A model generated the notes under the pieces. The model was not told the DNA's origin and made no database searches. It saw only the letters and a program-made list of their open reading frames with translations. A program made the translations under genes and the position numbers. From Nannocystis bainbridge (GTDB lineage Bacteria; Myxococcota_A; Polyangia; Nannocystales; Nannocystaceae), in the NCBI RefSeq assembly GCF_028368995.1, contig NZ_JAQNDL010000003.1, positions 2,720,001 through 2,784,000 on the forward strand: a stretch of DNA of 64,000 nt, written 5' to 3'. Shown here one piece after another: positions 1,733-62,259 of this stretch; within the stretch, counting starts at the first letter, position 1; the number at the start of each line of letters is the position of its first letter.

Positions 1733-3258
1733 CCCCTCCTGAAACGCGAACTTGCTCGATTCGGACCCCCTCTGCCCCGCTCGTGCCCCACCTCGGTCGC
1801 CTCGAGCTCGACCCGCGGCTGGTCGTCCGCAGCTTCGACGCCGGCTTCGCCGCGCTCGCGGGCGAGCGCGCCGACGAGGTCCTCGGGCGCCCGCTCGACG
1901 CCCTCTTCAGCGTCCGTGACCGCCGGGGGATCCGCCGCTTCGACGAGGCCATCAGCCACAGCGACGCCCGCCACATCGACCTCCACATCGACCTTCACCT
2001 CGGCGCCCGCGACGTCCTCGCCCGCCTCCTCCTCTCGCGCACCGATGTCGGCTGGCTCGCCTTCGTCGAGGATCTCGGCGGCGCCGGCAACCTCGTGTCC
2101 GAGCTGGCCCACAGCCGCGAGCTGTGGCGCGAGGTCGTGCATCAATCGGCCGAGGGCGTCGCCGTGCTCGGCAGCGACGGCCGCCTGCTCGAGTACAACC
2201 CCGCCTTCTTCCGCCTGCTCGACCTCCGCTCGACCCGCAACATCGCCCTCAGCGAGGAGGCCGTGCGCGGCGCCCCGCTCGTCGACCTGCTGCTCGACGA
2301 CTCGCTCGCCCCTCTGCGCGAGCACCTCGCCGGCAGCGGCGGGCTCGCCCGCGAATTGCAGCACCGCAGTCGCTGCCTCGAGTTCGCCGTTCGCCCGCTC
2401 GCCTTGCCGCGCCAGCGGTTCGCCGGCGTCTGGCTGGCCTTGCGCGACATCACCGAGCGGCGCCGCGCCGAGCGTCTGCGGGCCGCCCTCGACGCCGCCC
2501 GCGAGGAGCTCTTGCTCAAGGAGAAGCTCGCCGCGCTCGGCGGCCTCGTCGACGGCATCGCCCACGAGCTCGGCGACCCGCTCGGCGTCGCCGTCACCGC
2601 CGCCGGCCTCGCCCGCGATCAGCTGCACGAGCTGCGCGCCTCGTTCGAGGCCGGCATCCTGCGCCAGCGCGACATGCGGCACCACCTGCAGCAGGCCCTG
2701 GCCGCCGCCGACCTCGCCCTCGCCAACCTGCGCCGCGCCGCCGCCCTCGTCGCTGGCGTCAAGCGGGTCGCCGTCGACAGCTCCGAGACAATTCGGAGGG
2801 ACATGTCCGTCGGGACATATGTCAATACCATCGTCGCCGGCCTGAGCCCGTGGACCGCCGGCACCCCGCACCGCGTCCACGTCGAACTGCGCGCCGACCC
2901 GCTCGTCTCCGTGTTCCCGGCCGCCCTGGCGCAGATCGTCACCAACCTGGTCCACAACGCCCTGACTCATGCCTTCCCTGCCGGTCGCCCCGGTCGCATC
3001 GTCGTGTGGGTCGACGTCGCCGGCGACAAGGTCGAGATAGGCTGCCGCGACGACGGCGTCGGCATGACCCCCACCACCTTGCCGCGGATCTACGAGCCCT
3101 TCTTCACCACCACCCGCGAGCACGGCACCGGCCTCGGCCTCTACATCGTCCACAACCTCGTCACCGACCTCCTGCGCGGCACCGTCGTCGCCCGCTCCAC
3201 CCCCGAGCGCGGCACCACCGTGGTCATCCGCTTCCCCGCCCGCCCCGCAGACCCGTGA
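1729..3258 (+). CDS. PAS-domain sensor histidine kinase
   Basis: PAS-like segments; H-box GIAHELGDPL, N-box QIVTNLVHNA, G1 DDGVGM, F EPFFTT, G2 GTGLGL. Confidence 0.93.
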   Translation: MTPPETRTCSIRTPSAPLVPHLGRLELDPRLVVRSFDAGFAALAGERADEVLGRPLDALFSVRDRRGIRRFDEAISHSDARHIDLHIDLHLGARDVLARLLLSRTDVGWLAFVEDLGGAGNLVSELAHSRELWREVVHQSAEGVAVLGSDGRLLEYNPAFFRLLDLRSTRNIALSEEAVRGAPLVDLLLDDSLAPLREHLAGSGGLARELQHRSRCLEFAVRPLALPRQRFAGVWLALRDITERRRAERLRAALDAAREELLLKEKLAALGGLVDGIAHELGDPLGVAVTAAGLARDQLHELRASFEAGILRQRDMRHHLQQALAAADLALANLRRAAALVAGVKRVAVDSSETIRRDMSVGTYVNTIVAGLSPWTAGTPHRVHVELRADPLVSVFPAALAQIVTNLVHNALTHAFPAGRPGRIVVWVDVAGDKVEIGCRDDGVGMTPTTLPRIYEPFFTTTREHGTGLGLYIVHNLVTDLLRGTVVARSTPERGTTVVIRFPARPADP

Positions 3259-3437: not shown

Positions 3438-4190
3438 ATGCTCTTCGACGCCCACCTCCACATCATCGAACCGCGCTTCCCGCTCGTCCCCAATCAAGGC
3501 TGGCTGCCCGCTGCTTTTGATGTCCCCGAGTACATGTCCCATGCGACAGCCATGGGCATCACTGGCGGCGCCGTCGTGTCCGGCTCGTTCCAGGCGTTCG
3601 ACCAGTCGTACCTCGAGGACGCCCTCGCCCGGCTCGGCCCCACCTACGTCGGCGTCACCCAGCTCCCGGCCGACGTCCCGGACGCCGAGGTCGTGCGACT
3701 GAACCATCTCGGCGTCCGGGCCGTGCGCTTCAACCTGCGTCGCGGTGGTTCGGCCGACCTCGCCGACCTCGAGACCCTCGCCCGCCGCGTCCACGACCTC
3801 GCGGGATGGCACACCGAGCTCTACGTCGATTCGTCCGACCTGTCGGAGCTCGCGCCGCGACTGCGTGCGCTGCCCCGGGTCAGCATCGATCACCTCGGCC
3901 TGTCGGCGGCCGGTCTGCCGACCTTGCTCGCGCTGGTCGAGCATGGCGTGCGCGTCAAGGCCACCGGCTTCGGCCGCGTCGACTTCGAAGTGGCTGACGT
4001 CCTGCGCCAGATCTCCGCCATCGACCCTCACGCCCTCATGTTCGGCACCGACCTGCCCTCGACCCGCGCCCCGCGGCCCTTCACACCCGCGGACCTCCCT
4101 CTTTTAAAAGAGGCCCTGAGCCCCGAGCTGTCACGCCGCGCCCTCTACGACAACGCGATCGCCTGGTACCGCCCCGCCGCCCTCGCATAA
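3438..4190 (+). CDS. Amidohydrolase family protein (Amidohydro_2, lactonase-like)
   Basis: N-terminal FDAHLH metal-binding motif, GVRAVRFN, SIDHLG, LMFGTDLP; ATG at 3438. Confidence 0.9.
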   Translation: MLFDAHLHIIEPRFPLVPNQGWLPAAFDVPEYMSHATAMGITGGAVVSGSFQAFDQSYLEDALARLGPTYVGVTQLPADVPDAEVVRLNHLGVRAVRFNLRRGGSADLADLETLARRVHDLAGWHTELYVDSSDLSELAPRLRALPRVSIDHLGLSAAGLPTLLALVEHGVRVKATGFGRVDFEVADVLRQISAIDPHALMFGTDLPSTRAPRPFTPADLPLLKEALSPELSRRALYDNAIAWYRPAALA

Positions 4191-4575: not shown

Positions 4576-4583
4576 CGCGCCGC

Positions 4584-7805: not shown

Positions 7806-8960
7806 GTGCAGTCCGTCACGCCCCTCACTGTGCGCATCCGCCGCGCGTTCTCTCGGCTGTTCGATTCGCGGCGGATCGGCCGCAGCATCGCCCTCGGCGC
7901 TGCGCTGTCCGTGCCGCTGATCGCTTGCACCTCGCTGACCCTCACTCGCCTGAATTCGGCGCAGAAGAAGCCCAACAACGTGTGGGTATTCTTCACCGTC
8001 GAGCAGAACGAGGAGCCGGTCGCAGGCCTCCAGGCCGAGGACTTCCAGATCTACGAAGACGGCGATCTGGTCTCGACCTACGAGAGCAAGCAGGTCATTC
8101 AGAACCCCGAGGTCGCGGCGGTCATGTACACCATGCTGCTGCTCGACGTGTCGGGCTCCGTGTCCGAGTCCGGCTCGGCGGACCAGTTGGTCGACGCCGC
8201 GCAGCTGTTCACCGACCGCGTCGGCAAGACCCAGAAGGTCGGCGTCTACGCGTTCGACGGTGAGAAGGAGCTGCACTCGGTGACGCCCTTCACCGAGTCG
8301 GAGGGCGCCGTCTCGGGCGGCCTCGACGGCCTGCGGACCTACAAGCCCAAGGACCCCTCGACCAACCTTCACGGTGCGGTCATGGAGGGGCTCAAGGAGC
8401 TCAAGAAGTCGCTCGACAAGGAGAAGAAGCCGCTCAAGTTCGGCACCCTCGTCGTGTTCACCGACGGCACCGACCGCGCCGCCCGCTTCTCGCGCGAGGA
8501 CATGAAGGGCGAGCTGCTGAAGGAGCAGTACAAGGACTACGAGATCTACGCGATCGGCGTCGGCGCGGAGATCAAGAAGGCCGGCCTCGGCGACATCGGC
8601 CGCGACGGCACCGAGCTGGCGACCGAGCAGACCGGCGTCAAGACGGCCTTCGAGAAGGTCGCCGACCGCATCGAGCGCCACACCAAGCGCTTCTACCTGC
8701 TGTCCTACTGCACCCCGGCGCGCAAGGGCACCCACACCGTCCGCATCGTCGCCAACAGCAAGAGCCCCAAGGGCTCCGGCCAGCTCGAGTGGGACTTCAA
8801 CGCCGACGGCTTCGGCCCCCCGCCTGAGTGCGACCCCAACACCCCGCCCGTGTTCCCGCTCAAGACCGGCGAGATCGTCGACACCGGCAAGATCCAGGGC
8901 GACAGCGGCAGCGGCGGCAAGGTCAAGGTCAAGGCCAGCGCCTCCGCCTCGGCCGGTTAA
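7806..8960 (+). CDS. VWA-domain probable lipoprotein
   Basis: Lipobox-like LIAC; MIDAS DVSGS, STNLHGA, VFTDG; strong GC3 bias. Confidence 0.88.
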   Translation: MQSVTPLTVRIRRAFSRLFDSRRIGRSIALGAALSVPLIACTSLTLTRLNSAQKKPNNVWVFFTVEQNEEPVAGLQAEDFQIYEDGDLVSTYESKQVIQNPEVAAVMYTMLLLDVSGSVSESGSADQLVDAAQLFTDRVGKTQKVGVYAFDGEKELHSVTPFTESEGAVSGGLDGLRTYKPKDPSTNLHGAVMEGLKELKKSLDKEKKPLKFGTLVVFTDGTDRAARFSREDMKGELLKEQYKDYEIYAIGVGAEIKKAGLGDIGRDGTELATEQTGVKTAFEKVADRIERHTKRFYLLSYCTPARKGTHTVRIVANSKSPKGSGQLEWDFNADGFGPPPECDPNTPPVFPLKTGEIVDTGKIQGDSGSGGKVKVKASASASAG

Positions 8961-8991: not shown

Positions 8992-9022
8992 AAGGGCATG
9001 TCCTCGCGGACATGCCCTTTTT
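8992..9022 (+). terminator. Possible intrinsic terminator overlapping a 14-bp motif array
   Basis: Perfect 12-bp stem AAGGGCATGTCC/GGACATGCCCTT with TCGC loop and a short T run, ~30 nt after the stop codon. Confidence 0.5.
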
Positions 9023-9068
9023 GACATGGTCAAAAGAGCATGTCTCAGAGGGCATGACCATTCAGACA
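8999..9068. repeat. Five-unit phased array of the 14-bp TGTCC-N4-GGACA palindrome
   Basis: TGTCC-TCGC-GGACA|TGCCC-TTTT-TGACA|TGGTC-AAAA-GAGCA|TGTCT-CAGA-GGGCA|TGACC-ATTC-AGACA. Confidence 0.9.
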
Positions 9069-9180
9069 TGTCACGACATTGCGCGCCATGCATCACCCCG
9101 ACGCGCCCGAGCCGCCTCGACGCGCGCGTGATTCCAGCGCCCGCTTTTTGATAAAGCGAGAGAGAGTCTTTGGGACAGGC

Positions 9181-10935
9181 TCAGCCGCCGAGCCGGCGCG
9201 CCAGTTGGTCTTCGTACAGCGACGGCGGGTCGAGCGGCTCGACCTGACCGGGGCCCTCGACCCAGTCCTCCGGCGCGGTCCCGGCGGCGTCGGGCGACTC
9301 CAGGCTGGTCTCGACCGCCAGCTGCGGGCCGACCCCGATCACGTAGCCGTGGCCGAACTGGCGCGAGCGCACCACCCCCTTGCCGCTCGCGTTCCACACC
9401 GCCGACTGCGTCGCGCTGTGGCCGGCCCCGCTCGACCACGCCAGGCGATTGACCGCGCCCCAGCCGTCGTCGACCACGCTCTGGTCGAGCAGGTTCGCCG
9501 TCGCCAGCGAGTGGTGGAACTCCGACAGCCCCACCGTCCCGAACTCGCTGCCCATCAGCGCCACCGCCTTGCCCTCCGAGCTGTGCACCCGCAGCCACAC
9601 GATCCCCGTCGCGCCGAAGCCCCAGTTCTGCACGAAGTTGTGCCGCCCCGCCCGCGCCACGCAGTCGCGCACCAGCACCTCCCCGCTCTGCATCACCTCG
9701 AACAGATAGCCGTTGCCGCCGTCGCCGCGGTGCTGCGCCAGCTCGAGCGTGCTCTCGGCCACCGTCACCCGCGCGCTGCGCTGAATCGTCAGACCGCCGG
9801 ATTGCAGGTGGCGCCCGGACCCCTTGCCCTCCGCCGGCGCTCCTGGCGACACGAACGACCTCACCCCCGAGACCCACGCGTCGCGCACCCCGATCATCGC
9901 CACCGCGTACACCTGGTCCTGCGACCACGCGTCCTCCCAGCCGACCGCGTTGGCGACCCCGACGTCCATCAACGCCACCTCGCGCAGCAGCCCCGTCACC
10001 GGCCGCACGCTGGCCTGGTCGCGCACGAGCGCCGGGTAGCGCAGCGGCACGTCGAGCTCGAGCGTGCCGCTGACGCCGTCGACCGCCGTCACGGTGCGCC
10101 AGAAGAACGGCTGCCAGGTGTCGTTGAACTGCTGCCAGGTGCCCGTCATCGCGTGCTCGCCGACGAACGCCGGGGAGATCTGCCAACCGATGGCGATCTC
10201 GTCGCCGACCTTCAGGCTGCTCGGATCGGCCACCGTGATCGTGCGCGACCGCTCCTCTCCGCTCTCGGTCAGCGCCACGTCGACCCCCAGCTGCGGCGCG
10301 CCGGCGAACGTCAGATGTGCCTCATAGGACATGTCCGAAAAGGCAGTGAACCATAGTCGGCTCTGCTCGGCCCCGTCGCCCTGGATCACCGTGTTCGAGC
10401 TGCTGACCGTCAGCCGCCCGTCGACCCGGTAGAGCCCCGCCGGCAGGCGCACGACCGCCCCGCCGGCCGCGGCCGCGGCGTCGAGCGCGGCCTGCAGCGC
10501 CGCCGTCGCGTCGCTCGCCCCGGTCTGATCGGCCCCGTGGTCGCGCACCGCGTCGATCGTCTCGGCCGGCAACACGCTGCCCGGCGTCACCTCGGCCAGG
10601 CGATAGCCGGCGTACGAAAAATCGTGGAGATAGCGCCCCTCCGGCCCCGTGAACGCCGGCGTCCAGTCCTCCGGATAGAGCTCGCTGCGCCACCCCGCCG
10701 GCTCGCCGGTCGTGCTCGTCCCGTCGCCCGTGCTGCTGCTCGTCCCGGTCGGCCCCGTCGTGCTCGTCGGCTCGCCCGTGGTGCCTGACGGATCGCTCGT
10801 GGTCCCCGTCGTCGTGCCCGTCACCTCCGCGCCCGTGCTCGGGCCCTCGCCCGTCGAGGTCGACGCGCTCGTGCTGCCGTCGCCCCCGCCACAGGCCATC
10901 ACCCACACCACCGACGTCACCGCGAGCCGACGCAT
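9181..10935 (-). CDS. Secreted lipoprotein with a pectate-lyase-like beta-helix (probable polysaccharide-active enzyme)
   Basis: Signal ending VMAC, Thr/Ser/Gly linker, DFSYAGY, VRDHGAD..G.SDATAALQAA...VRLPAGLY. Confidence 0.82.
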   Translation of the reverse strand: MRRLAVTSVVWVMACGGGDGSTSASTSTGEGPSTGAEVTGTTTGTTSDPSGTTGEPTSTTGPTGTSSSTGDGTSTTGEPAGWRSELYPEDWTPAFTGPEGRYLHDFSYAGYRLAEVTPGSVLPAETIDAVRDHGADQTGASDATAALQAALDAAAAAGGAVVRLPAGLYRVDGRLTVSSSNTVIQGDGAEQSRLWFTAFSDMSYEAHLTFAGAPQLGVDVALTESGEERSRTITVADPSSLKVGDEIAIGWQISPAFVGEHAMTGTWQQFNDTWQPFFWRTVTAVDGVSGTLELDVPLRYPALVRDQASVRPVTGLLREVALMDVGVANAVGWEDAWSQDQVYAVAMIGVRDAWVSGVRSFVSPGAPAEGKGSGRHLQSGGLTIQRSARVTVAESTLELAQHRGDGGNGYLFEVMQSGEVLVRDCVARAGRHNFVQNWGFGATGIVWLRVHSSEGKAVALMGSEFGTVGLSEFHHSLATANLLDQSVVDDGWGAVNRLAWSSGAGHSATQSAVWNASGKGVVRSRQFGHGYVIGVGPQLAVETSLESPDAAGTAPEDWVEGPGQVEPLDPPSLYEDQLARRLGG

Positions 10936-11118
10936 GATCTCCAGCATGCCCGAGCACCGACCTCAGCCGTAAGGGGCCGCCGATCGCCGCTGCCTCACGA
11001 CCTCCGCCACAGCGCCTGACTGTTCGGACATGCCCTTACGGACATCTTCGAAAGTGCGCGCGGCCGCGGTCCGCCGACCCCGGCGAACAGCGGCCGGTTT
11101 CACTCGCAAAGACGTGTC

Positions 11119-16785: not shown

Positions 16786-18075
16786 GTGACGGCCCTCGGC
16801 GTCGGCATCCTCGGCCTCGGCAACGTCGGCGCGGGCACGGTGCGGCTCCTCGGCGAACGCCGCGAGCGCATCGAAGCCCGCCTCGGGGTGGCCCCGACCA
16901 TTCGTCGTATCCTCGTGCGCGACCGCGAGCGCGAGCGGGCCGTCGAGGTCGCGCCGGAGCTGCTCACCACCGACATCGACGAGGTCCTCGGCGACCCCGA
17001 GATCGCCATCGTCGTCGAGCTCATGGGCGGCGTCGAACCGGCGCGCAGCTACATCCTGGCCGCGCTGCGGGCCGGCAAGCACGTCGTCACCGCCAACAAG
17101 GCGGTGCTCGCCGAGCGCGGCGCCGAGATCTTCGCCGAGGCCGCGCGGGTCGGTCGGGCCGTCGTCTTCGAGGGCAGCGTCGCCGGCGGGATCCCCCTGC
17201 TCCGCAGCCTGCGCGAAGGCCTCGCAAGCGACCGGATCACCGGCCTTTGCGGGATCGTCAACGGCACCTCCAACTACATCCTCGACGCCATGACCCGCAC
17301 CGGCGCCGGCTTCGCCGACGCGCTCGCCGGGGCCCAGGCCGCCGGTTACGCCGAGGCCGACCCCAGCCTCGACGTCGGGGGCGGCGACGCGGCCCACAAG
17401 CTGGCGCTGCTGGCCCTCGTGGCCTTCGGCGTGCAGGTCGACCCGGGCACGATCGCCACCGAGGGGATCTCCCACGTCACCGCGTTCGACATCCGGGCCG
17501 CGGCGGAGCTCGGGTTCGTCATCAAGAGCCTGGCGATCGGCCAGCGCGACGAGCACGGCGTCGGCCTCCGCGTCCACCCCACGCTGGTCCCCCGGGACCA
17601 CGTGCTCGCCGGCGTCCAGGGGGCCTTCAACGCCGTGCTGGTCCAGTCCGACGCCCTCGGCCCCAGCCTCTACTACGGCCGCGGCGCCGGCATGATGCCG
17701 ACCGCCGTCGCCGTGGTCTCCGACATCCTCGAGGTCGCCCGCGACATCCTCGCTGGCCTGTACTCGCGGCCAGGTCCTTCCGGACATGTCCCTTCGACCA
17801 CCTCAAAGCCCGTCAGCCTGCGCCCGCTGGCCGAGGTCGTCTGCGCGCACTACCTGCGCTTCCGCGCCCCGCACGTCCCCGGCGTGCTCGGCCGCGTCGC
17901 CGCCTGCCTCGGCCGCCACGGCGTCAGCATCCGCCGCATGGCGCAGGAGACCCCGTCGGCCGACGGCTCGGCGGCGATGGTCATGCTGACCGAGCCCGTC
18001 GCCGACGGCTCACTCGCGGCCGCCCTGGTCGAGGCCGCCCTGCCCGTCACCCGCCTGCGCCTGCTCGCGGAGTGA
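16786..18075 (+). CDS. hom: Homoserine dehydrogenase with C-terminal ACT domain
   Basis: GLGNVG, VVTANK, FEGSVAGGIP, GIVNGTSNYIL, GYAEADP..DVGGGDAAHK; GTG start inferred. Confidence 0.95.
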   Translation: MTALGVGILGLGNVGAGTVRLLGERRERIEARLGVAPTIRRILVRDRERERAVEVAPELLTTDIDEVLGDPEIAIVVELMGGVEPARSYILAALRAGKHVVTANKAVLAERGAEIFAEAARVGRAVVFEGSVAGGIPLLRSLREGLASDRITGLCGIVNGTSNYILDAMTRTGAGFADALAGAQAAGYAEADPSLDVGGGDAAHKLALLALVAFGVQVDPGTIATEGISHVTAFDIRAAAELGFVIKSLAIGQRDEHGVGLRVHPTLVPRDHVLAGVQGAFNAVLVQSDALGPSLYYGRGAGMMPTAVAVVSDILEVARDILAGLYSRPGPSGHVPSTTSKPVSLRPLAEVVCAHYLRFRAPHVPGVLGRVAACLGRHGVSIRRMAQETPSADGSAAMVMLTEPVADGSLAAALVEAALPVTRLRLLAE

Positions 18076-20853: not shown

Positions 20854-20900
20854 CGCCAGGTCCTTCGCGGCATGTTCTCTGCGACAGGTCCCATGGGACA
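20845..20900. repeat. Four-unit phased 14-bp motif array spanning a stop codon, spacer and the next start codon
   Basis: TGGCT-GTAG-CGCCA|GGTCC-TTCG-CGGCA|TGTTC-TCTG-CGACA|GGTCC-CATG-GGACA. Confidence 0.75.
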
Positions 20901-21555
20901 GCCACGCACCGCCGCCGAACCCGAGCCGAGCCCCGAGGCGCGGCGCCTGGCTCGCAAGTCGCGGCGCCAGGACAACCGCCGCCAGCAGATCCTCCGCGCC
21001 GCCCGCGAGGTGCTGCTGGCGAGCGGCCCCGAGGCGTTCACGATGGAGCAGGTGGCCCGGGCCGCCGACGCCAGCAAGGCCGCGCTCTACTATTATTTCG
21101 AGGCCAAGGAGGAGGTCGTCGCGGCCCTGGCGATCGAGGCCCTGCGGCGCGAGGTCGAGGCCGTCAGCGCCGCCGTGATCGCCGCCGAGCGCGGCATCGA
21201 CGGCCTCGCGGCGCTGCTGCGCGGCCGCGTCGAGCACTACCTCGCCGACCCCGACTCGTTCCGGATCCTCTACACCTGGGCGCCGACGCTGGGCGCGACC
21301 CAGCGCCTGGTCCTGGCCGAGATCTTGCCCCTCACCGCGGTCGTCAGCCAGACGCTCGAGGCCAAGCTGCAGCGCGACCGCAAGGCCGGTCTGCTCCACC
21401 CCGACGCCAACCCGGCCCGCCTGTCCCAGGTCGCCTGGATCACCAGCCACGGCCTGCTCAGCTACGCGATGAACCAACCCCACCCGGAGCGCGGCGCCTG
21501 GCGCCCCCTGTGCGACGAAGCCTGCGCCGCCCTGGTCCGCGGCGCCACGCGCTGA
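20893..21555 (+). CDS. TetR/AcrR family transcriptional regulator
   Basis: ILRAAREVL..GPEAFTMEQVARAADASKAALYYYFEAKEE helix-turn-helix. Confidence 0.93.
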   Translation: MGQPRTAAEPEPSPEARRLARKSRRQDNRRQQILRAAREVLLASGPEAFTMEQVARAADASKAALYYYFEAKEEVVAALAIEALRREVEAVSAAVIAAERGIDGLAALLRGRVEHYLADPDSFRILYTWAPTLGATQRLVLAEILPLTAVVSQTLEAKLQRDRKAGLLHPDANPARLSQVAWITSHGLLSYAMNQPHPERGAWRPLCDEACAALVRGATR

Positions 21556-21899: not shown

Positions 21900-22682
21900 T
21901 CACGGCGCCAGCCACACGTCGCCGGACTCGACCCTGCGCGGCGGCCCGCCGTCTGCCAGCGCGACCATCAGCGCCCCGTCGTCGGCCAGCCCCAGCGCCT
22001 TTGCCTGCACCTTCGGGCCTGCCCCATTCGACATGTCCACAAAGACATCCCGATCTCGCAGCGCGCAGTGGGGCTCGTAGCGGCCGCGGATCGCCGCGAA
22101 CCCGCCGGAGAAGAACTGCTCCAGCGCGGCCTCCAGCGCCGGCAAGATCCGCCCCAGCACCGCCTCGCGGCTCGGCGTTGCTTCGCCCAGCTCGCGGCGC
22201 AGGCTCGTCGCCGTCGCTGCCAGCGGCTCGGGGAACAGCGACCGACCCACGTTGACGCCGAAGCCGACCACCACCTCGGGCGACGACCCGACCCACCGCG
22301 CCTCGCAGAGGATCCCCGCCAGCTTGCGGCCTTCGACCAGCACGTCGTTGGGCCACTTCAGCTGCGCCGCTGGCAGCCAACGCGACAGGCCCTCGCGCAG
22401 CCCTGCGCCCACCGCCAGCCCGAGCGCCCCGATCGGCTTGCCCGCGTCCGGCCGCAAGATCGCGCTGACATACAGGTCCTCGCCCGACTCCGACGCCCAC
22501 GCCCGCCCCAGCCGCCCGCGCCCCGCCGTCTGTGCGTCCGCGGTCACCAGCGCCCCGTGCGGCGCCCCGGCCCGCGCCCACGCCAGCGCGCGATCGTTGG
22601 TCGACCCGAGCTCGGCCCAGTGCTCGCGCGGGCGCCCGAGCCAGCGCGTCGCAAAGGCCATATTTTCGAAGGAGTCGCTCAC
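21900..22682 (-). CDS. birA: Biotin--[acetyl-CoA-carboxylase] ligase without N-terminal HTH
   Basis: STND, QTAGRGRLGRAW, LKWPND, KLAGILCE, GFGVNV. Confidence 0.94.
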   Translation of the reverse strand: MSDSFENMAFATRWLGRPREHWAELGSTNDRALAWARAGAPHGALVTADAQTAGRGRLGRAWASESGEDLYVSAILRPDAGKPIGALGLAVGAGLREGLSRWLPAAQLKWPNDVLVEGRKLAGILCEARWVGSSPEVVVGFGVNVGRSLFPEPLAATATSLRRELGEATPSREAVLGRILPALEAALEQFFSGGFAAIRGRYEPHCALRDRDVFVDMSNGAGPKVQAKALGLADDGALMVALADGGPPRRVESGDVWLAP

Positions 22683-22863
22683 GCCCGCCCCCCGCAGGGC
22701 ATCCGCCGTTGCGAGCCCCTGGACAGGCGCATCGTCAGCACGAACACCCTCGATCGCTCGAAGAATCTGTCCCTTCGGACATCCCCAGCGCTCCGCGCGA
22801 GCATCCGCGCACGCGGTCGCTCTTCACTGCACATGTCCCTTCAGACATGCCCCATTCACCGGC

Positions 22864-36260: not shown

Positions 36261-36570
36261 TATTTCGGGCATCCGCGGCTGCTTCCCTACGCGCAGCGCT
36301 CCACAAGCGCTCGTGCCTGCTCGACCGCAAAGCCGCGTCGTTCTCGCCTCGCCGGCACACCGCCGCCGCCTCGCTCGCGCGACTGAAGCGGACGCTCATG
36401 CGCCGATAAACATCGTTCCACGTCCGGCGCGCGAATTCGCAAGCATCCCCACGCCCGCCGAGGTACACCCGCCGAGTGAGCCGCCTTCACCCGACCGCCC
36501 CCGTCCTATCGCATCGCATGTCCCGCGCCTCTGATTCCTATTAGAAAAAACTGTCCTTTGGGAGCATGTC

Positions 36571-37095
36571 ATGACAATGAACTCTTGGACATGGATGTCC
36601 AGCCCGCTCGGCGAGTTGCGGCTCGTCGCTGGTGGCGGCGTCTTGCGGCGCGTGCACATGACCGACACCCGTGACCTGCCGGCGCCCGCCGAGTATGGCG
36701 ACGCCTGCGACGACGAGCCCGTCTTGCAGCAGGCGCGGCGCGAGCTCGACGAGTATTTTGCCGGGCGACGGCGACGCTTCGAAGTCGCGCTCGGGCCTGA
36801 GGGCACCGAGTTTCAGCGGGCCGTGTGGACCGCCCTCGTCGCCGTCGATTTCGGCGTCCTCTGCAGCTACGGAGACATCGCCCGGGCCATGGGGCGCCCG
36901 ACCGCCACCCGGGCCGTCGGCCAGGCCAACAATCGCAACCCGATCCCCGTGATCATCCCCTGTCATCGTATCGTCGGCAGCGATCGCAGCCTCACGGGCT
37001 ACGGGGGCGGCCTCGAGCGCAAGCGGTGGTTGCTCGCCCACGAGGCGCGGCTGGTCGGCGCCGTCTTCACCGGCTACGATCCGCCCGCATGTTGA
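36571..37095 (+). CDS. ogt: Methylated-DNA--protein-cysteine S-methyltransferase
   Basis: SPLGEL, GTEFQRAVW, RAVGQAN..NP, active site IPCHRIV, GYGGGL. Confidence 0.96.
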   Translation: MTMNSWTWMSSPLGELRLVAGGGVLRRVHMTDTRDLPAPAEYGDACDDEPVLQQARRELDEYFAGRRRRFEVALGPEGTEFQRAVWTALVAVDFGVLCSYGDIARAMGRPTATRAVGQANNRNPIPVIIPCHRIVGSDRSLTGYGGGLERKRWLLAHEARLVGAVFTGYDPPAC

Positions 37096-37686: not shown

Positions 37687-38592
37687 TCAGCAGTTGGGGC
37701 AGATGCAGATCAGGTCGGCCTCGCCGTTGCCTTCGCCGCACAGCCCGAACGGCTGCTCGCACGCCTCGCTGGCGCAGTCGCAGCTGGCCTTGTCGCCGCA
37801 CTCGGTCGGCAGCGGCAGGCACGTATGCTCGTTCATGAACGCCTGGAACTGCACACACATCAGCGAATCGGGGCACGACTTGCAGTCCGGCACCTTGTCG
37901 CACGACACCGCCGGCACGCAGGCGCCGCTCCAGCACGCCCCGTCGATCCCCGGCAGCGTCCCGGGCGGGCACTCGGGCGGCAGCGAGTCGCACGCGACCT
38001 CGCTGCTGCAGTCGACCTTCTCGGTCGTGCACTGGCCGAGCACGCACTTCGCCTCGTCGATGCCGATCTGCTGGCACTGCGTCTCGTCGCACAGCGCCTT
38101 GCAGATCGGGTCGGTCTGGTCGTTGGGGATGCCGTAGCACGAGCAGCAGTCGTCGTGCAGCTTGCAGTCCGCGTCGACCTCGCACGGCCCACCGCCCGGG
38201 CCGCCGGTCGTGCCGTCGGTCGTGCCGTCGGTCGTGCCTTCGGTCGTGCCGTCGGTCGTCCCCGCGGTATCCGTCCCCGCGGTATCCGTCCCCGCCGTCG
38301 TCTCGCTGCTCGTCCCGTCCGTGCTCGGGCCGGTGGCCGCCGTCGTCTGGCTCTCGCCGGTCGTGCCCGAGGCCGCGGTCGTGCCCCCGGGGTCGCCCGT
38401 CGGCTCGAACTCCGTGGTCGGCGAGTCGGTGCTCGCGGTCGTCACCTGCGTCGCCGCCGACGACTGCGCCCCGGTCGATTCGCCGCTGTCGCTCGCGCTC
38501 GCGGTGCCGAGGGTCTCGCTGCTCTGGGGAGCGGCCGTCGAACAGGCGCCGAGGCCGATGCTGGAGATCAAGAAGAGAGATCTAAGTCGCAT
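37687..38592 (-). CDS. Lipoprotein with a Thr/Ser-rich linker and Cys-rich C-terminal domain
   Basis: MRLRSLFLISSIGLGAC; ~130-aa T/S/G linker; more than 20 Cys in the C-terminal part. Confidence 0.85.
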   Translation of the reverse strand: MRLRSLFLISSIGLGACSTAAPQSSETLGTASASDSGESTGAQSSAATQVTTASTDSPTTEFEPTGDPGGTTAASGTTGESQTTAATGPSTDGTSSETTAGTDTAGTDTAGTTDGTTEGTTDGTTDGTTGGPGGGPCEVDADCKLHDDCCSCYGIPNDQTDPICKALCDETQCQQIGIDEAKCVLGQCTTEKVDCSSEVACDSLPPECPPGTLPGIDGACWSGACVPAVSCDKVPDCKSCPDSLMCVQFQAFMNEHTCLPLPTECGDKASCDCASEACEQPFGLCGEGNGEADLICICPNC

Positions 38593-38721
38593 GGGCCGAA
38601 GGATGGCAAACAGGCCGCGGGCGCGCCAGGGGGCGCAAGGCCGCCCTCGACGCCGCGTGTGCGTCCGCGCCCCGCCCGCGAGGGCCCCGCGCCGCTCGGG
38701 GTGCGCTATCGTGCCCCCGAC

Positions 38722-39738
38722 ATGCTCAACGACAGCTTCCTCCGCGCCTGCCGCGGCGAACGCCCCGCGCGGACCCCGATCTGGCTCATGAGACAGGCAG
38801 GTCGCTACCTCCCGGAGTACCGCGCGATCCGGGCCAAGGTCAGCTTCGAGGAGCTGTGCCGGACCCCCGAGCTGTGCGCCGAGGTCACGCTGCAGCCGAT
38901 CGATCGCCTCGACGTCGACGCCGCGATCCTGTTCTCCGACATCCTCGTCGTGTTCGACGCGCTCGGCGTCGACGTGCGCTTCGAGCCCTCGCCGGTGATC
39001 GCCGAGCCCGTGCGCACGCGGGCCGACGTCGAGCGCCTGCGGTGGATCGACCCGCGCGAGGCCTGCCACTACGTCTACGCCGCCGTGCGCGCCTGCAAGG
39101 CCGCGCTCGCCGGCCGCGTGCCGCTGATCGGCTTCTGCGGCGCGCCCTTCACCACCCTCAGCTACCTCGTCGAGGGCAAGACCAGCCGCGAGTTCGAACA
39201 TGTCAAATCGCTCATGTTCTGCGAGCCAGGTCTCTTCGGACAGCTGATGGGGCGCATCACCGACCTGCTGATCGACTACCTGCGTGGTCAGGTCGAGGCC
39301 GGCGTCGACGCGCTGCAGGTGTTCGACAGCTGGGCCGGCGCGCTCGCGCCTGACGACTACCGCGAGCACGTCCAGCCGCACACCGCCCGCCTGTGCGCCG
39401 CCGTGCGCGAGTTCGGCGTGCCGCTCATCATGTTCACCCGCGGCAACGCCAACCTGCTCGCCTACTCGGCCGAGATGCCGGCCGACGTCGTCGGCGTCGA
39501 CTGGTCGATCGACCTCGCCCGGGCGATCGACGTCGTCGGCCCCGAGCGGGTCGTGCAGGGCAACCTCGACCCGTTCGCGCTGCTCGGCCCGCCGGCCCTC
39601 GTCGAGCACAAGGCGCGGGCGATCGTCGCCGCCGGCAAGCGCGCGCGCGCCCACATCTTCAACCTCGGCCACGGCATCTCTCGCCACACCGACCCGGCCA
39701 TCGCGCGCCTCCTGGTCGACACGGTCCACGACGCATGA
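38722..39738 (+). CDS. hemE: Uroporphyrinogen decarboxylase
   Basis: PIWLMRQAGRYLPEY, AILFSDIL, LIGFCGAPFT, QVFDSWAG, QGNLDP, NLGHGI. Confidence 0.97.
   Translation: MLNDSFLRACRGERPARTPIWLMRQAGRYLPEYRAIRAKVSFEELCRTPELCAEVTLQPIDRLDVDAAILFSDILVVFDALGVDVRFEPSPVIAEPVRTRADVERLRWIDPREACHYVYAAVRACKAALAGRVPLIGFCGAPFTTLSYLVEGKTSREFEHVKSLMFCEPGLFGQLMGRITDLLIDYLRGQVEAGVDALQVFDSWAGALAPDDYREHVQPHTARLCAAVREFGVPLIMFTRGNANLLAYSAEMPADVVGVDWSIDLARAIDVVGPERVVQGNLDPFALLGPPALVEHKARAIVAAGKRARAHIFNLGHGISRHTDPAIARLLVDTVHDA
39187..39242. repeat. Four-unit phased 14-bp motif array inside hemE
   Basis: CGCGA-GTTC-GAACA|TGTCA-AATC-GCTCA|TGTTC-TGCG-AGCCA|GGTCT-CTTC-GGACA. Confidence 0.7.
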
Positions 39739-40283
39739 GCCTCTCGTCGCGCGTGCTCCTGCTCGCGGCGGTCGCGGCCGCTGCGTGCACGCGCCCGCAG
39801 ACCGGCCCGCCGCCCGAGCCTCCGCCACCCGACGCGCCCGTCCAGCCCACGCAGGCGATCCGCCACGCCGCCGGCGAGGTCCTCGACGTCACCGTCCCGC
39901 TGCTCGCCGGCCCTGCGCTGCCGCTGCCGAGCCTGCGCGGCCGCGTCGTCGTCCTCGAGCTCACCTCCGCCGCGCTGCCCTCGTGGCCGGCCAGCTTCGC
40001 CGCCTACAACGACCTCCTGCGCGAGTACGGCCCCGCCCGCCTCGCCGTCGTCGTCGTCGCCCTCGACTTCGACCGCAGCGCCCTCAGCCCCGAGCCCGAC
40101 CTCCGCCTCCACGGCTTCGAGCTCGGCTGGGACCCGCAGGGCGCCCTCGCGGCCCGCCTGCAGCTCGGCGCGCTGCCCACCGCGCTGGTGCTCGGCCGCG
40201 ACGGACGGATCGTCCACGTCGCCAGCGGCCCGGAGCCCTCGCGCACCCTCGCCGACGCCGTGCGCGCCGCCTTGGGCCCGTGA
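39735..40283 (+). CDS. TlpA/redoxin-like lipoprotein lacking CxxC
   Basis: Lipobox AAAC; LRGRVVVLEL, VVVVALD, LPTALVLGRDGRI; ATGA overlap with hemE. Confidence 0.72.
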   Translation: MSLSSRVLLLAAVAAAACTRPQTGPPPEPPPPDAPVQPTQAIRHAAGEVLDVTVPLLAGPALPLPSLRGRVVVLELTSAALPSWPASFAAYNDLLREYGPARLAVVVVALDFDRSALSPEPDLRLHGFELGWDPQGALAARLQLGALPTALVLGRDGRIVHVASGPEPSRTLADAVRAALGP

Positions 40284-40561
40284 GGCTCGCAGAGCGGCAT
40301 GTCCCAAAGGACAGCCGTGAGCGCGCCGAGATCTTGCAGCCGCAGCGATCGCGTCGGTCGACGATCGTCTGGGGTGACACAGGAGCGGGCAGCAGCCGCG
40401 CGGGCCGTCGATCTCGAAGTCCACGCCGCCCTGTCGACCCGGCATCGGCCATCGCGGGCCCTCGGCGCCGCTCGCCCGGGCCGATGACCCCCGCGGTTCA
40501 CGCTCGCGCTGCGTGCTGACGCGCGCCGGGCGCTCGTGTATCCTCGCGCGCACCAGCGCGC

Positions 40562-41137
40562 ATGACACACACGACCTCGGACACCTGGCAGGGCGGCCTC
40601 ACCGCGGACCTCTCGAAGATCCTCCTGAGCGAGCAGCAGATCCAGGAGCGGGTCGCCCAGCTCGGGCGCACGCTTGCGAGCGAGTACGCCGGCAAGGACC
40701 CGCTGATGGTCGGCATCCTCAGCGGCAGCCTGCTGTTCATGGCCGACCTCGTGCGGCACATGAACATCCCGCTGTCGATCGACTTCATGGCCGTCTCGTC
40801 CTACGGCGATCGCACCACCTCCTCGGGCGAGGTGCGGATCTTGAAGGACCTCGGCAGCGCGGCCACCGGGCGCCACATCGTCCTCGTCGAGGACATCGTC
40901 GACAGCGGCCTGACCCTCGATTATCTGTGCGACATCCTGCGCACGCGCCACCCGGCCTCGCTCGAGATCTGCACCCTGCTCGACAAGCACGAGGCCCGCA
41001 AGCGGCCGCTCCAGGTCCGCCACGTCGGCTTCCCGTGCCCCAACGAGTTCGTGGTCGGCTACGGCCTCGACTACGCCGGCCACTACCGCAACCTCCCGTA
41101 CATCGGCGTGCTCAAGCCCGCGATCTACACCACCTGA
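40562..41137 (+). CDS. hpt: Hypoxanthine phosphoribosyltransferase
   Basis: VSSYG, PRPP motif VLVEDIVDSGLTL, FVVGYGLDY...YRNLPYI. Confidence 0.97.
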   Translation: MTHTTSDTWQGGLTADLSKILLSEQQIQERVAQLGRTLASEYAGKDPLMVGILSGSLLFMADLVRHMNIPLSIDFMAVSSYGDRTTSSGEVRILKDLGSAATGRHIVLVEDIVDSGLTLDYLCDILRTRHPASLEICTLLDKHEARKRPLQVRHVGFPCPNEFVVGYGLDYAGHYRNLPYIGVLKPAIYTT

Positions 41138-48708: not shown

Positions 48709-50118
48709 TCAGGCCGCCGCTGCTGCTGCCTGATCGGCGCGGCCGAGCAGCGCGTCTGCGGCCGGACCGATCACCCCGATCAGCGCGTCGCGGCACAGCG
48801 TCACCTGCTCGTCGGGCATCAGCCGCCCGTGCGCGCGCAGCAGCTCCGGATCGGCGTCTGCCGGCCACGGGCGGACGCCGACCGGCTCGCGCAGGGCCGC
48901 GGCGAACGCCTCGCGCACCGCCTCGCGCACCGCGGGCGAGCGGCCGAGGGCCCACTGCACGAACCGCCAGGCCAGCTGCGAGTGGCGGCCCTCGTCGACG
49001 GCGATCTGCCGCAGCACGCTGCGGACCACGTAGTCGCTGGTCTGGAACGCGGCGACCTGGGCCAGCAGGGCCGCCAGCGTCTCGCCGACGCAGCCCTCGC
49101 GCACCGCCGCGGCGGCCAGCGCCGGCAGGTCGCTGTCGCCGAGCGCATCGGACATGTCCAAACGGCCAGGTCCCATCGGGCTGCCCGCGTACGCGCCCGC
49201 CAGCGCGTAGCAGGCGCGCGCGTGTGCGATCTCGTCGGCCATCGCCCGCTGCGCCCCGTCGACCAGCGACGCCGGCGCGCCGATGGCCAGCAGCTGCAGC
49301 GCGAAGCGGGCGAACGAGGCCACCGACGCGTGCTCCTCGGCCGCCGTCGCGCCCCACAGCTCGGCCAGCGCGGCGCGGGTCGGCTCGTCGAGGCCCGTGA
49401 GCGACGGCAAGATCTGACCCTGCCAGTCGCTGCGGCGCAGGCTCGGCGCCACCCGGCCCGCGCCCTCGACCATGAACGGCCGGCCCTCGCACACCATCCC
49501 GTCGCCGTGGGCGACGAAGTAGCAGCACTGGTCCGGAGCGGCCGGCATCGGGTCCGGCCCGCACTGCACGGTCAGATCGGTGTAACTGCAGAACGGGTCG
49601 CCGGTGGCCGCCGCGTTGGCCCAGCTCTGGCTGCACGCCTCGTCGCAGGCGGCGCAGTCGGCCAGGCCGTCGGGCACCGGGAAGCACACGTACTTCTGCA
49701 TCAGCCCCGGCGGCGGCGGCTCGCACGTGAACTCGCCCGGCTCGTCGGTGGTCCCGGGCTCGCCCGTCGTCGTCGTCGTGCTCGTCGTCGTGCCGCTGGT
49801 CTCGCCGGTCGTGCTGGTGGTCTCCTCGCCGGTGATCGTGTTCGGCGTCGTCGTCGTGCCCGGCGCGGTCGTGGCCTCGCTCGTCGAGGTCGTCACGCCC
49901 TCCGTGGTGGCCGTCAATTCGCCCGGGTCATCGGTCGTGCCGGTGAGCGGCCCCGACGTCACTGCGCCGGTGGTCGAAGTGGTCGAGCTGGTCGAGGTCG
50001 ATTCGGGTTCGGTCCCCGCGTTCGTCTCGCTGCTCGCGCCCCCGCAGGCGGCCACCAGCCCCAGCGCCGCCATCAGCTCGACATAGAAGGCGCGGGTCAC
50101 GGCAAAGTGGGAGCGCAT
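48709..50118 (-). CDS. Ferritin-like-domain lipoprotein
   Basis: VAAC lipobox, Thr linker, Cys-rich segment, GRPF; EEHASVASF, DEIAH, EGCVGET, DEGRH di-iron-type motifs. Confidence 0.85.
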   Translation of the reverse strand: MRSHFAVTRAFYVELMAALGLVAACGGASSETNAGTEPESTSTSSTTSTTGAVTSGPLTGTTDDPGELTATTEGVTTSTSEATTAPGTTTTPNTITGEETTSTTGETSGTTTSTTTTTGEPGTTDEPGEFTCEPPPPGLMQKYVCFPVPDGLADCAACDEACSQSWANAAATGDPFCSYTDLTVQCGPDPMPAAPDQCCYFVAHGDGMVCEGRPFMVEGAGRVAPSLRRSDWQGQILPSLTGLDEPTRAALAELWGATAAEEHASVASFARFALQLLAIGAPASLVDGAQRAMADEIAHARACYALAGAYAGSPMGPGRLDMSDALGDSDLPALAAAAVREGCVGETLAALLAQVAAFQTSDYVVRSVLRQIAVDEGRHSQLAWRFVQWALGRSPAVREAVREAFAAALREPVGVRPWPADADPELLRAHGRLMPDEQVTLCRDALIGVIGPAADALLGRADQAAAAAA

Positions 50119-50432
50119 GCGGGAAACCTAGCCAAGCCCTGCCGGGCACGCCACCGGGCTCATGCGATTCGCGCCACCACCCGCGCCCCGTGTTCGCCCG
50201 CCCTCCGTCGATCACATCCGGTGCCGTGAAGCAGGCCCACGAAATGCGGCGCTCGTCACCAGTTCGCGCAGTTGCGCGCACCTGTCCCTTCGGACATCCG
50301 AGTGGGCCCGATCGCAACGCTCGCATGGGTAAAAGCAACGTGTTTCAACCGACCTCGTCGGCAGTCGCCGGGGCCGGCACCCACGTTCGCGGGCCCGATC
50401 TCTCCGGCACCTCGCTCGTCGCCGCCAGCGAG

Positions 50433-51488
50433 CTACGCGGTCGCGTCCGTCGTCTCGCACGCGGACGGCGTCGCGTCCGGCGCTCGGATAGCTCTCGTCG
50501 CTGCGCTCGCGTCACTCGCCTCGTCCGTCGCGGATGTCGCGGCCGTCACATCCGTCGCGGCGATCGTCTCCGTCGTGGCGAGCACCTCCGTCGCGGCGAT
50601 CGTCTCCGTCATCGCCTCGCTCGCGACGCCGGACCCGATCGTCTCGAACGTCGGCGCAGCGAACGCCAGGCGACGGCGCATCACCTCGATCGCCTCCGGG
50701 TTCTGGTCGACCAGCACCACGTCGCGACCGTGGCGCAGCGCCGCCTCGCCGAAGCTGCCGCTGCCGGCGAAGAAATCGAGCAGCAGCTCGCCCGGGCGCG
50801 AGTGCACCTGGACGATGCGCTCGAGGATCTTGAGCGGCTTCTGCGTCGGATAGCCCGTCTTCTCGCGGCCTTGCGGGCTGACGATGGTCTGCCACCACAC
50901 GTCGGTCGGCGTCTTGCCGCGGGCCGCCTTCTCCGGCCCGACCAGGCCCGGGGCCATGTACGGGATGCGGTCGATCGCCTCGTACTCGAACGTGTAGCGC
51001 GCGGGATCGCGGGCGTACCACAGGATGTTGTCGTGCTTGGCCGACCAGCGGGACTTCGAGCGGCCGCCGTAGTCGTACGACCACACGATCTCGTTCATGA
51101 AGCACTCGCGGCCGAAGATCTGGTCGCAGGCGATCTTCGCGTAGTGGACCTCGCGATAGTCGAGGTGGAGGAAGAAGCTGCCGTCGGCCGTCAGCAGCCG
51201 GTGCGCCTGCTCGAGGCGGGGCCACAGGAACTCGAGGTAGTCGTCGAACACGTCGGCGTAGCGGCGCTCGCCGAGCTTGATCGTGCGGTAGCGCTGGCCC
51301 TTGAAGCCGGTGCGGTCACCCTCGGCGTCGCGCACCGTCTTGAGCTGCGCCCGCCGCTGGGTCTGGCCGGTGTTGAACGGCGGGTCGATGTAGATCAACG
51401 AGAACCCGCCCGCGGGCAGGTCCGGCAGCACTTCCATGTTGTCCGCGAGCACGACCCGCGCGCGCGGTCGCGCCGCCGCGTCGCTCAC
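50433..51488 (-). CDS. Site-specific N6-adenine/N4-cytosine DNA methyltransferase (beta-class motif order)
   Basis: IYIDPPF precedes YPTQKP and DFFAGSGS; GTG start overlaps the upstream stop; Ala/Thr/acidic tail. Confidence 0.92.
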   Translation of the reverse strand: MSDAAARPRARVVLADNMEVLPDLPAGGFSLIYIDPPFNTGQTQRRAQLKTVRDAEGDRTGFKGQRYRTIKLGERRYADVFDDYLEFLWPRLEQAHRLLTADGSFFLHLDYREVHYAKIACDQIFGRECFMNEIVWSYDYGGRSKSRWSAKHDNILWYARDPARYTFEYEAIDRIPYMAPGLVGPEKAARGKTPTDVWWQTIVSPQGREKTGYPTQKPLKILERIVQVHSRPGELLLDFFAGSGSFGEAALRHGRDVVLVDQNPEAIEVMRRRLAFAAPTFETIGSGVASEAMTETIAATEVLATTETIAATDVTAATSATDEASDASAATRAIRAPDATPSACETTDATA

Positions 51489-61123: not shown

Positions 61124-62259
61124 CGCGGCGAGCGCTGGTGGCCCTCGCCGCCCTGCTCGCCTGCGGCCAGCCTCAAGGGACAGGTCCCAACAAACCTGCC
61201 CCGAGCGACATGTCCTCAAAGACAGCCCCGGAGCCGGCCCCCGCGCCGGAGCCGGAGCCCGAGCGCGCGGCCCCGCCGGTGCGCAAGGACGGCACGATCT
61301 ACGCCGAGACCCAGCAGATGGGCACCCGCGTCTCGATCAACGTCCACGTCGGCGAGCGCGCCCCGGCCGAGGCGGGCGCGGCGATCGAGGCCGCGTTCGC
61401 GGAGATCGAGCGTGTCGAGCAGATCATGAGCGAGTGGCGGCCGAGCAGCGAGCTGTCACAGCTCAACGACGGCGCCGGCGGCCCGCTGCGCCCGCTGAGC
61501 GTCGATCTCTTCGACATCCTGCAGCGCAGCAAAGAGATCGCCCAGGCCACCGGTGGCGCCTTCGATCCGACCTTCTACAGCGTCGGCCAGCTGTGGAAAT
61601 ACGACCCCGGCAGCCGCCCGCCGACGCGCGAGGCGATCCTCGAGAAGCTGCCGCTGGTCGACTGGCGCTCGATCGAGCTCGACCCCGCCACCCGCAGCGG
61701 TCGCCTCGCCAAGCCCGGCATGAAGATGGGCCTCGGCGCGATCGCCAAGGGCTACGCGGTCGACCGCGCCTCGACCATCCTGCGCGAGCGCGGCTTCCCC
61801 GATCACATCGTCGAGGGCGGCGGCGACACCTTCGTCTCCGGCACCAAGGCCGGCAAGACCTGGATGGTCGGCATCCAGCGCCCCGACGGCCCCGGCTCGA
61901 TCGCCGCCATCCCGGCCCGCGACCGCGCCGTCGTCACCTCGGGCGACTACCAGCGCTTCATCGAGTTCGAGGGCGTCCGTTACTCGCACATCCTCGACCC
62001 GCGCACCGGCTTCCCCGTGCCCGAGGATCGCAGCCTGCAGAGCATCACGATCCTCGCGCCCAACGCCACCGACGGCGACGCCTACGCCACCGCCGTCGCA
62101 GTCATGGGCGTCGACGCCGGCCTCGAGTTCATCACCTCGCACCCTGGCCTCGACGCCGCGCTCATCACTCGCACCGGCGAGCTCCGCGTCACGCCCGAGC
62201 TGGCGAAGATCCTCGTCTACCCGCAAGACAAGCCCGCTCCGCCGCCGCCGGCCCCGTGA
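61120..62259 (+). CDS. apbE: FAD:protein FMN transferase lipoprotein
   Basis: LLAC lipobox; MGT, SELSQLN, GAFDPT, GAIAKGYAVD, VTSGDYQR, HILDPRTG. Confidence 0.94.
   Translation: MTRRALVALAALLACGQPQGTGPNKPAPSDMSSKTAPEPAPAPEPEPERAAPPVRKDGTIYAETQQMGTRVSINVHVGERAPAEAGAAIEAAFAEIERVEQIMSEWRPSSELSQLNDGAGGPLRPLSVDLFDILQRSKEIAQATGGAFDPTFYSVGQLWKYDPGSRPPTREAILEKLPLVDWRSIELDPATRSGRLAKPGMKMGLGAIAKGYAVDRASTILRERGFPDHIVEGGGDTFVSGTKAGKTWMVGIQRPDGPGSIAAIPARDRAVVTSGDYQRFIEFEGVRYSHILDPRTGFPVPEDRSLQSITILAPNATDGDAYATAVAVMGVDAGLEFITSHPGLDAALITRTGELRVTPELAKILVYPQDKPAPPPPAP

Follow-up and report, generated by a model that had tools for sequence, protein, structure and literature searches.

It is rare for an over-represented DNA word to override codon preference, and most such words, HIP1 of the cyanobacteria among them, still lack an explanation (PMC5861425). 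HIP1 (GCGATCGC) is a short palindrome strongly over-represented both within and between genes; its conservation at orthologous positions has led to the view that selection acts on the DNA itself, a part in chromosome or nucleoid structure is suspected, and no reader of it is known (PMC5861425). In the myxobacterium Myxococcus xanthus, CdbA is an abundant and essential ribbon-helix-helix nucleoid protein with more than 550 sites, ~65% of them intragenic, whose consensus is a repeat with units 4 bp apart bound by a tetramer (PMC7156744), and CdbA orthologs have been reported in all sequenced Myxococcales (PMC10313047). Regulators of the PadR family recognize an operator with the consensus ATGT-N8-ACAT (PMC4517056). 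Here we describe a phased palindromic element, GGACATGTCC, in a 64-kb stretch of the Nannocystis bainbridge genome (contig NZ_JAQNDL010000003.1, positions 2,720,001 to 2,784,000; hereafter the window), where four units of it are written into the hemE gene through rare codons.

A rare-codon cluster in hemE

The product of hemE matches the Pfam family URO-D with an E value of 1.3e-125 and the TIGR01464 hemE equivalog model with 405 bits against a cutoff of 303. The window has a G+C content of 71.2%, and 16 of the 338 sense codons of hemE end in A or T. Six of these (GAA159, CAT160, AAA162, CCA169, GGT170, and GGA173) fall within codons 159–173, where the G+C of a 48-nt segment drops to 0.50, the mean of the window being 0.71, and each of the six makes up 2.7–9.3% of its synonyms by the codon usage of the window. 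When the codons of hemE itself were permuted, at least six A/T-ending codons within 19 consecutive codons were found in 0.675% of 20,000 permutations. The cluster had been reported in an initial annotation made from the sequence, and the observation is confirmed here; the codons were quoted there in the correct frame (codons 156–174, 39187 being the first base of codon 156), but the end was placed at 39242 and the true end is 39243.

An unusual peptide can be dismissed as the cause of the cluster. The residues over codons 154–178 are typical of the family across 79 other homologs, M165 being found in 66 and K162 in 77 of them. The hemE signal is therefore carried mainly by synonymous sites.

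A palindrome in a fixed 14-bp register

The initial annotation left the motif unspelled, and we recovered it from the low-G+C patches of the window as units of GGACATGTCC in a 14-bp register. Maximal-order Markov statistics on k-mers were uninformative, as sub-words absorb the excess, and a second-order model was used instead. Under this model GGACATGTCC is the top 10-mer of the window by excess over expectation. It occurs exactly at four sites (eight on both strands), where 0.06 are expected in 64 kb, and at up to one mismatch it occurs 16 times against 1.76 expected, a count that none of 100 shuffles reached.

The spacing of the units is equally restricted. A second unit with at most three mismatches lies at +14 bp from six of the 16 seed sites, against a background of 0.5%. 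When k was varied from 0 to 16, all seven exact occurrences of TGTCC-Nk-GGACA had k = 4; with up to one mismatch, the k = 4 arrangement was found 26 times against 1.62 expected from the shuffle control. Furthermore, ATGT-Nk-ACAT peaks at k = 8 (six exact cases, 0–2 at other spacings), and CATG-Nk-CATG peaks at k = 10 (eight cases against 0.64 expected from the shuffle control). In the columns next to the seeds, on which no selection had been made, the proximal half-site is kept (C in 26/32 and A in 20/32), whereas the distal half and the second neighbor are weak. The element is therefore best described as alternating GGACA and TGTCC half-sites, 0 and 4 bp apart (GGACATGTCC-N4, with a 14-bp period). 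Three or four half-sites are the usual number, although as many as six full units occasionally occur, and the element is present irrespective of gene strand and also in intergenic DNA. The motif was not found described in the bacterial literature that was searched, a search outside which many subscription papers and supplements lay.

An 18-mer, CTGTCCCTTCGGACATCC, occurs at 1064–1081, 22767–22784, and 50282–50299, all three copies being intergenic and 120–290 nt upstream of a minus-strand gene; their flanks share nothing more, and they possibly represent a sharper sub-class of the element. The plus strand is C-rich across the window (GC skew −0.107), with CCCTTC biased 23 to 6, and the apparent 8 to 1 strand bias of TGTCCCTT largely follows this composition; the spacer CTTC is found only in that orientation.

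Codon choice as carrier of the hemE array

In hemE the units stand in register as GAACATGTCA-aatc-GCTCATGTTC-tgcg-AGCCAGGTCT-cttc-GGACAGCTGA, with 4-nt spacers and unit starts 14 bp apart (Table 1). The spacer before the fourth unit, CTTC, is the commonest of the window, and the CATG-N10-CATG pair at 39199–39216 is one of the window's eight. Five of the six rare codons give a consensus A or T, in agreement with the earlier remark that several of them supply motif positions; AAA162 extends into the first spacer rather than a unit. Scored with a matrix of 14 columns trained on the sites of the window without hemE, the array reaches 24.2 bits, whereas the maximum of ten whole-window Markov simulations was 16.0.

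We then asked how far synonymous choice accounts for this score. When hemE was resampled synonymously from the codon usage of the window, none of 10,000 resamples reached 24.2 bits; the best reached 17.0, and the mean at the place of the array was 2.4. The in-register codon is the best-scoring synonym at 12 of the 17 codons at which there is a choice, all six rare ones included. The two glycines illustrate this, as Gly170 is GGT and Gly173 is GGA, each the best motif synonym for its own position.

The same dependence is seen across the window. Within array units, the third codon position is A or T in 21 of 26 cases where the consensus column is A/T and in 2 of 42 where it is not; the background is 5.2%. 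Six of the 31 clusters of A/T-ending codons overlap arrays, though the arrays cover only 420 bases. Nine of the 46 predicted genes score above at least 99% of their own synonymous resamples (P < 0.01), among them the genes for homoserine dehydrogenase, a biotin-protein ligase-like protein, a histidine kinase, and an ABC transporter; some training sites lie in these genes, so the per-gene values are partly circular, hemE being exempt. The codon dips and the motif hits, whose correlation had been proposed as a check, thus coincide within this window.

A chance fluctuation in codon usage, picked out by eye, could account for a cluster of this size, as the clustering within the gene is modest (P = 0.007) and would be expected in some genes of an 11-Mb genome. 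For hemE we find this scarcely credible, given that no resample out of 10,000 matched the array under a matrix trained without the gene, that the array also beats the maximum of the ten simulations, and that the rare codons are retained in Nannocystis exedens.

Retention in N. exedens and absence from more distant relatives

HemE is 94% identical in amino acid sequence to its ortholog in N. exedens DSM 71, 74% to that of a Polyangia metagenome-assembled genome (MAG), and 67% to that of a Nannocystaceae MAG. At the nucleotide level, hemE and its N. exedens ortholog are 94.3% identical. Over 39187..39243 just two differences separate them, both in spacer 1, and the four 10-mers are identical; five of the six rare codons are the same, AAA162 being replaced by AAG. 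Among six genes aligned with N. exedens, at positions encoding the same residue, G/C-ending codons are kept at 964 of 1065 sites and A/T-ending codons at 20 of 50. The A/T-ending codons are kept at 5/5 motif positions but at 15/45 positions elsewhere (hypergeometric P = 0.007), an outcome of the proposed ortholog comparison that, with one sister species, is suggestive and not decisive.

Beyond the sister species the picture differs. At each of the six sites, the Polyangia and Nannocystaceae MAGs carry either a G/C-ending codon or a different residue, and neither of their hemE loci holds an array of at least 16 bits. Arrays at this threshold number 16 in the 64 kb analyzed here and one in 302 kb from 47 unrelated high-G+C hemE loci, and in the 7-kb locus of N. 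exedens the hemE array alone reaches it. As far as these loci indicate, the array signal is lineage-specific, apparently at the level of the genus.

These orthologs also bear on a translational pause that would aid HemE folding, the motif match being incidental. Six rare codons in 15, with usages of 2.7–9.3%, would plausibly slow decoding. None of the six sites is A/T-ending in the 74% and 67% orthologs, however, and rarity that is not conserved in position in distant orthologs argues against a folding pause. In addition, the rare codon chosen follows the DNA register (GGT at Gly170, GGA at Gly173), and the same motif occurs in intergenic DNA. A folding-related cluster is, on this evidence, highly improbable.

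Together, the resampling (0/10,000) and the retention in N. exedens (5/5 against 15/45) support, within the limits of these data, a DNA-level constraint layered on the protein code in hemE, as had been put forward in the initial annotation.

Two other features were noted in the comparison with N. exedens. After the gene downstream of hemE, the gap on the hpt side is ~1.4 kb in N. exedens (4580–6016 of its locus, L001) and 217 bp in the window (40288–40505); the breakpoint of this indel coincides with a two-unit site at 40295–40318. On the minus strand at 38578–38587, codons 2–5 of a divergent lipoprotein-like gene (CGA CTT AGA TCT) all end in A or T and are kept in N. exedens; they probably reflect the usual need for low structure at translation starts and form a second class, unrelated to the motif.

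Arrays elsewhere in the window

At a threshold of 12 bits or more the window holds 26 arrays (0–4 in the simulations), 16 of which reach at least 16 bits; the density is ~0.25–0.4 per kb, or about one array per 2.5–4 kb. Fifteen of the 26 are labelled as lying within a predicted gene and 11 as intergenic, the array at 3530 being counted as genic, yet spanning the start of its gene. The hemE units and the arrays discussed here are listed in Table 1.

Table 1. Coordinates of hemE, its array units, and other arrays in the window
Feature	Coordinates	Location	Score	Mismatches to GGACATGTCC	Remarks
hemE (uroporphyrinogen decarboxylase) CDS	38722..39738	+ strand			Pfam URO-D, TIGR01464; carries the array
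hemE unit 1, GAACATGTCA	39196..39205	hemE	14.4 bits	2	GAA159 gives A3, CAT160 gives T6
hemE spacer 1, AATC	39206..39209	hemE			Contains third base of AAA162; AGGC in N. exedens
hemE unit 2, GCTCATGTTC	39210..39219	hemE	4.7 bits	3	CATG core from CTC-ATG (Leu164-Met165)
hemE unit 3, AGCCAGGTCT	39224..39233	hemE	4.0 bits	4	CCA169 gives A5, GGT170 gives T8
hemE unit 4, GGACAGCTGA	39238..39247	hemE	1.1 bits	4	Left half-site GGACA perfect; GGA173 gives A3
Two-unit array	2799..2822	Histidine kinase gene	26.7		Local A/T-ending codon cluster; 0/200 resamples
Six-unit array	8994..9073	Intergenic	53.9	1, 1, 3, 3, 2, 2	Strongest array
Two-unit array	17768..17791	Homoserine dehydrogenase gene	27.0		Between catalytic and ACT domains; 0/200 resamples
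Four-unit array	20854..20905	Across start of TetR-family regulator gene 20893..21555	27.2		
Three-unit array	22015..22052	Biotin-protein ligase-like gene 21900..22661 (−)	29.6		0/200 resamples
Two-unit array	49150..49173	Uncharacterized gene 48709..50118 (−)	31.5		0/200 resamples; by codon choice
Four-unit array	61178..61229	Across start codon of apbE-like gene 61210..62259	36.7		

The array at 8994 sits in a 220-nt gap between the convergent genes 7806..8960 (+) and 9181..10947 (−). Its first two units with their flanks fold into a perfect hairpin of 16 bp that closes on a 4-nt loop and precedes TTTTT (z = −6.5, 0/200 shuffles); the terminator scan did not flag this hairpin, though folding shows it. 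Such a hairpin and U run speak for arrays that act in RNA, with hairpins of the palindromic units setting mRNA stability, processing, or termination, and TGTCC-N4-GGACA can also form a 5-bp stem with a 4-nt loop. The hemE array, however, folds no better than shuffled sequence (z = +0.20, with 114 of 200 shuffles folding as well or better), and neither do three other arrays in or overlapping coding sequence (z = −0.70, −0.14, and −0.99). The deviations of neighboring units are not compensatory, the 8994 pair excepted, and the motif is indifferent to gene strand. We therefore regard a general role in RNA as very unlikely.

Three further candidates for the hemE site were rejected. No internal sigma-70-type promoter or intrinsic terminator was found in 38550..40600. 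Insertion of a mobile element is out, hemE having the same length (338 codons) as three orthologs and aligning with them without gaps. Elements of the REP, BIME, and REPIN families are extragenic, form hairpins from imperfect palindromes of 20–40 nt, and share extended sequence; the array does not belong with them, because many of the copies here are intragenic, the hemE array does not fold, there is no insertion, and the sequence common to the five TGTCC-N4-GGACA sites compared is only ~18 nt.

A more local role would be that of an operator, bound by a PadR-like or TetR-like dimer and acting as a roadblock on hemE elongation or on the downstream lipoprotein-like gene 39735..40283. The junction between units resembles the PadR operator, and one array runs across the beginning of a TetR-family gene, where autoregulated operators also lie. 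On the other side, arrays of this kind are found at 16 or more sites over the 64 kb; the genes concerned are unrelated, and 9 of the 46 coding sequences carry such arrays, numbers that far exceed what a dedicated regulator would be expected to have. In addition, the junctions in hemE deviate from the operator (units 1 and 2 give ATGT-N8-TCAT), no PadR gene was found in the window, and no promoter-like site is near the array. A dedicated hemE operator is, in our judgment, quite unlikely.

The array at 20854–20905 covers both the promoter-proximal region and the start codon of the TetR-family gene, an arrangement typical of autoregulated operators, and the regulator encoded there is a candidate reader of the motif. 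The start of ogt (methylated-DNA-protein-cysteine methyltransferase), a gene absent from the predicted set, is overlapped at 36545–36602 by motif-like half-sites, including TGGACATGGATGTCCA, a variant with two extra bases between the halves; these half-sites are identical in N. exedens (L001 787–841). The window also encodes a DNA N6/N4 methyltransferase (50433..51488, minus strand; PF01555, E = 1.4e-40) that falls well short of the curated cutoffs for the adenine-specific and CcrM methyltransferase models. A Pfam scan of the predicted genes showed no restriction-enzyme domain adjoining it. This methyltransferase may be relevant if the palindrome arose in connection with methylation.

A proposed protein-binding platform and its main rival

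What is observed here is a phased motif that lies both in genes and outside them, depends on codon choice, and is retained in one sister species. To explain these observations, we think it probable, though far from assured, that the hemE cluster is one copy of a dispersed, genus-specific, genome-wide DNA array that would serve as a platform for cooperative protein binding. The hemE array would have been overlaid on a family-typical peptide, mainly by picking rare A/T-ending synonyms that fit the register, and would have been kept since before the split of the source species and N. exedens. It may be read as double-stranded DNA by a putative small dimeric protein that binds cooperatively, each dimer occupying one palindrome or one 14-bp TGTCC-N4-GGACA operator, so that short nucleoprotein tracts of two to six units would form. 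Recognition of double-stranded DNA by a dimer is suggested by the palindrome, the fixed spacing, the indifference to strand, the untranslated copies, and the lack of RNA structure; fixed spacing of half-sites is what dimeric DNA-binding proteins impose. Given ~0.25–0.4 arrays per kb, the putative reader would be a global or nucleoid-associated factor, not a regulator specific to hemE.

A wider version of this proposal is more tentative and may well prove wrong. Arrays of the form (GGACATGTCC-N4)n may be present by the thousands in Nannocystis and constitute a genus-wide layer of information read by a putative abundant DNA-binding protein, either a nucleoid organizer or a marker of self DNA. 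Selection on this layer would be strong enough to push rare codons, and perhaps certain residues, into essential housekeeping genes such as hemE and hom.

The main rival to the binding platform is a mutational or repair bias, such as methylation-directed repair of the very-short-patch type (a process that has been suggested for the HIP palindromes of cyanobacteria), that makes the arrays without their having a function of their own. Near-matches would be continually converted to the motif, third codon positions included, which would account for a hyper-abundant palindrome in coding and non-coding DNA alike and for A/T-ending codons that are kept despite genomic G+C pressure. The window does contain the DNA N6/N4 methyltransferase gene, and the abundance of HIP has been linked to methyltransferases that recognize sequences internal to it (PMC4390886). 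On the other hand, repair drive does not predict 14-bp phasing or a proximal half-site at exactly N4, and CATG in general is barely enriched in the window (1.17-fold). Conservation of HIP1 within and between genes has, moreover, been taken as evidence of selection rather than of replenishment by biased repair (PMC5861425). We consider a repair-driven origin unlikely, though a serious contender.

Several points weigh against the binding platform. Units 2–4 of hemE are weak (4.7, 4.0, and 1.1 bits), and around the seeds little information is found past the first neighbor, so that an "array" often amounts to two units. The conservation test covers one sister species and five codons, and the absence of differences over the 40 nt of the hemE units, where ~2.3 are expected at 94.3% identity, is not significantly above the conservation of the gene. 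The matrix was trained on the same window, which makes the window-wide counts, hemE excluded, partly circular. The arrays are spread unevenly, with 12 of the 16 at or above 16 bits in the first 24 kb, and statements about the genome are extrapolated from 64 kb and 7 kb. No PadR gene was found among the 46 predicted proteins scanned. Lastly, a repair-driven origin predicts the same static picture.

The element has an unusually sharp geometry, in which fixed half-sites stand 0/4 bp apart and units come in arrays of two to six. Its cost can be measured, as 30 of the 45 A/T-ending codons elsewhere gave way to G/C-ending ones between the sister species. The putative reader protein and the selective force are therefore experimentally approachable. 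Analyses of codon usage, gene transfer, and selection in these genomes will misread the stretches that carry arrays, and functional sites may be lost when myxobacterial genes are recoded synonymously for expression.

Comparison with known systems

Lineage-specific words accommodated in coding sequence are familiar from the uptake signal sequences (USS) of Pasteurellaceae and the DNA uptake sequences (DUS) of Neisseriaceae, which occur about once per kb, are sometimes paired as terminator hairpins, and are conserved between sister species. The USS and DUS differ from the Nannocystis element in being asymmetric single words and not phased palindromic arrays, and none of the present observations concerns competence.

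The junction of two consensus units, ATGTCC-N4-GGACAT, is exactly the PadR-family ATGT-N8-ACAT, with six exact cases in the window, and the best hemE junction, ATGT-N8-TCAT, departs from it by one mismatch. PadR operators are single sites in the promoters of padR and of target genes, whereas the Nannocystis sites overlap in arrays, are intragenic, and number dozens per 64 kb. The hemE site does not have the promoter location of a PadR operator: it lies 474 nt into the gene, there is no promoter-like site, and no PadR domain is found in the 46 proteins. A site of the MrpC/CRP type was likewise rejected. The MrpC consensus is TGTYN8RAC (PMC4320627), a 16-bp palindrome with 8 nt between TGTY and RAC, while the spacing here is TGTC-N6-GACA, and TGTCC-Nk-GGACA occurs seven times at k = 4 and not at all at k = 6.

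The binding sites of CdbA resemble the element in their myxobacterial host, in the 4-bp separation of units, and in their many intragenic copies. The available account of the CdbA motif describes a G+C-rich direct repeat of 18 bp with contacts one helical turn apart (PMC7156744). By comparison with that description only, the palindromic units, A/T core, and 14-bp period found here set the element apart from CdbA sites.

The closest known analog is HIP1. Like HIP1, GGACATGTCC is a short palindrome over-represented many-fold (in 64 kb), with sites both within and between genes (15 and 11 of the 26 arrays). On conservation at orthologous positions, one array in the one sister genome compared is suggestive, with 5/5 motif codons kept against 15/45 elsewhere. 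HIP1 itself is a G+C-rich, dispersed 8-mer, and no short-range phased arrays of it are mentioned in the available text of PMC5861425. The Nannocystis element differs in being a 10-mer with an A/T core in a genome of 71% G+C, in a different phylum; two to six of its units are phased at 14 bp into an array, at the cost of rare codons. If the genus-wide layer is true, the Nannocystis element would be a high-G+C, array-forming counterpart of the cyanobacterial HIP1.

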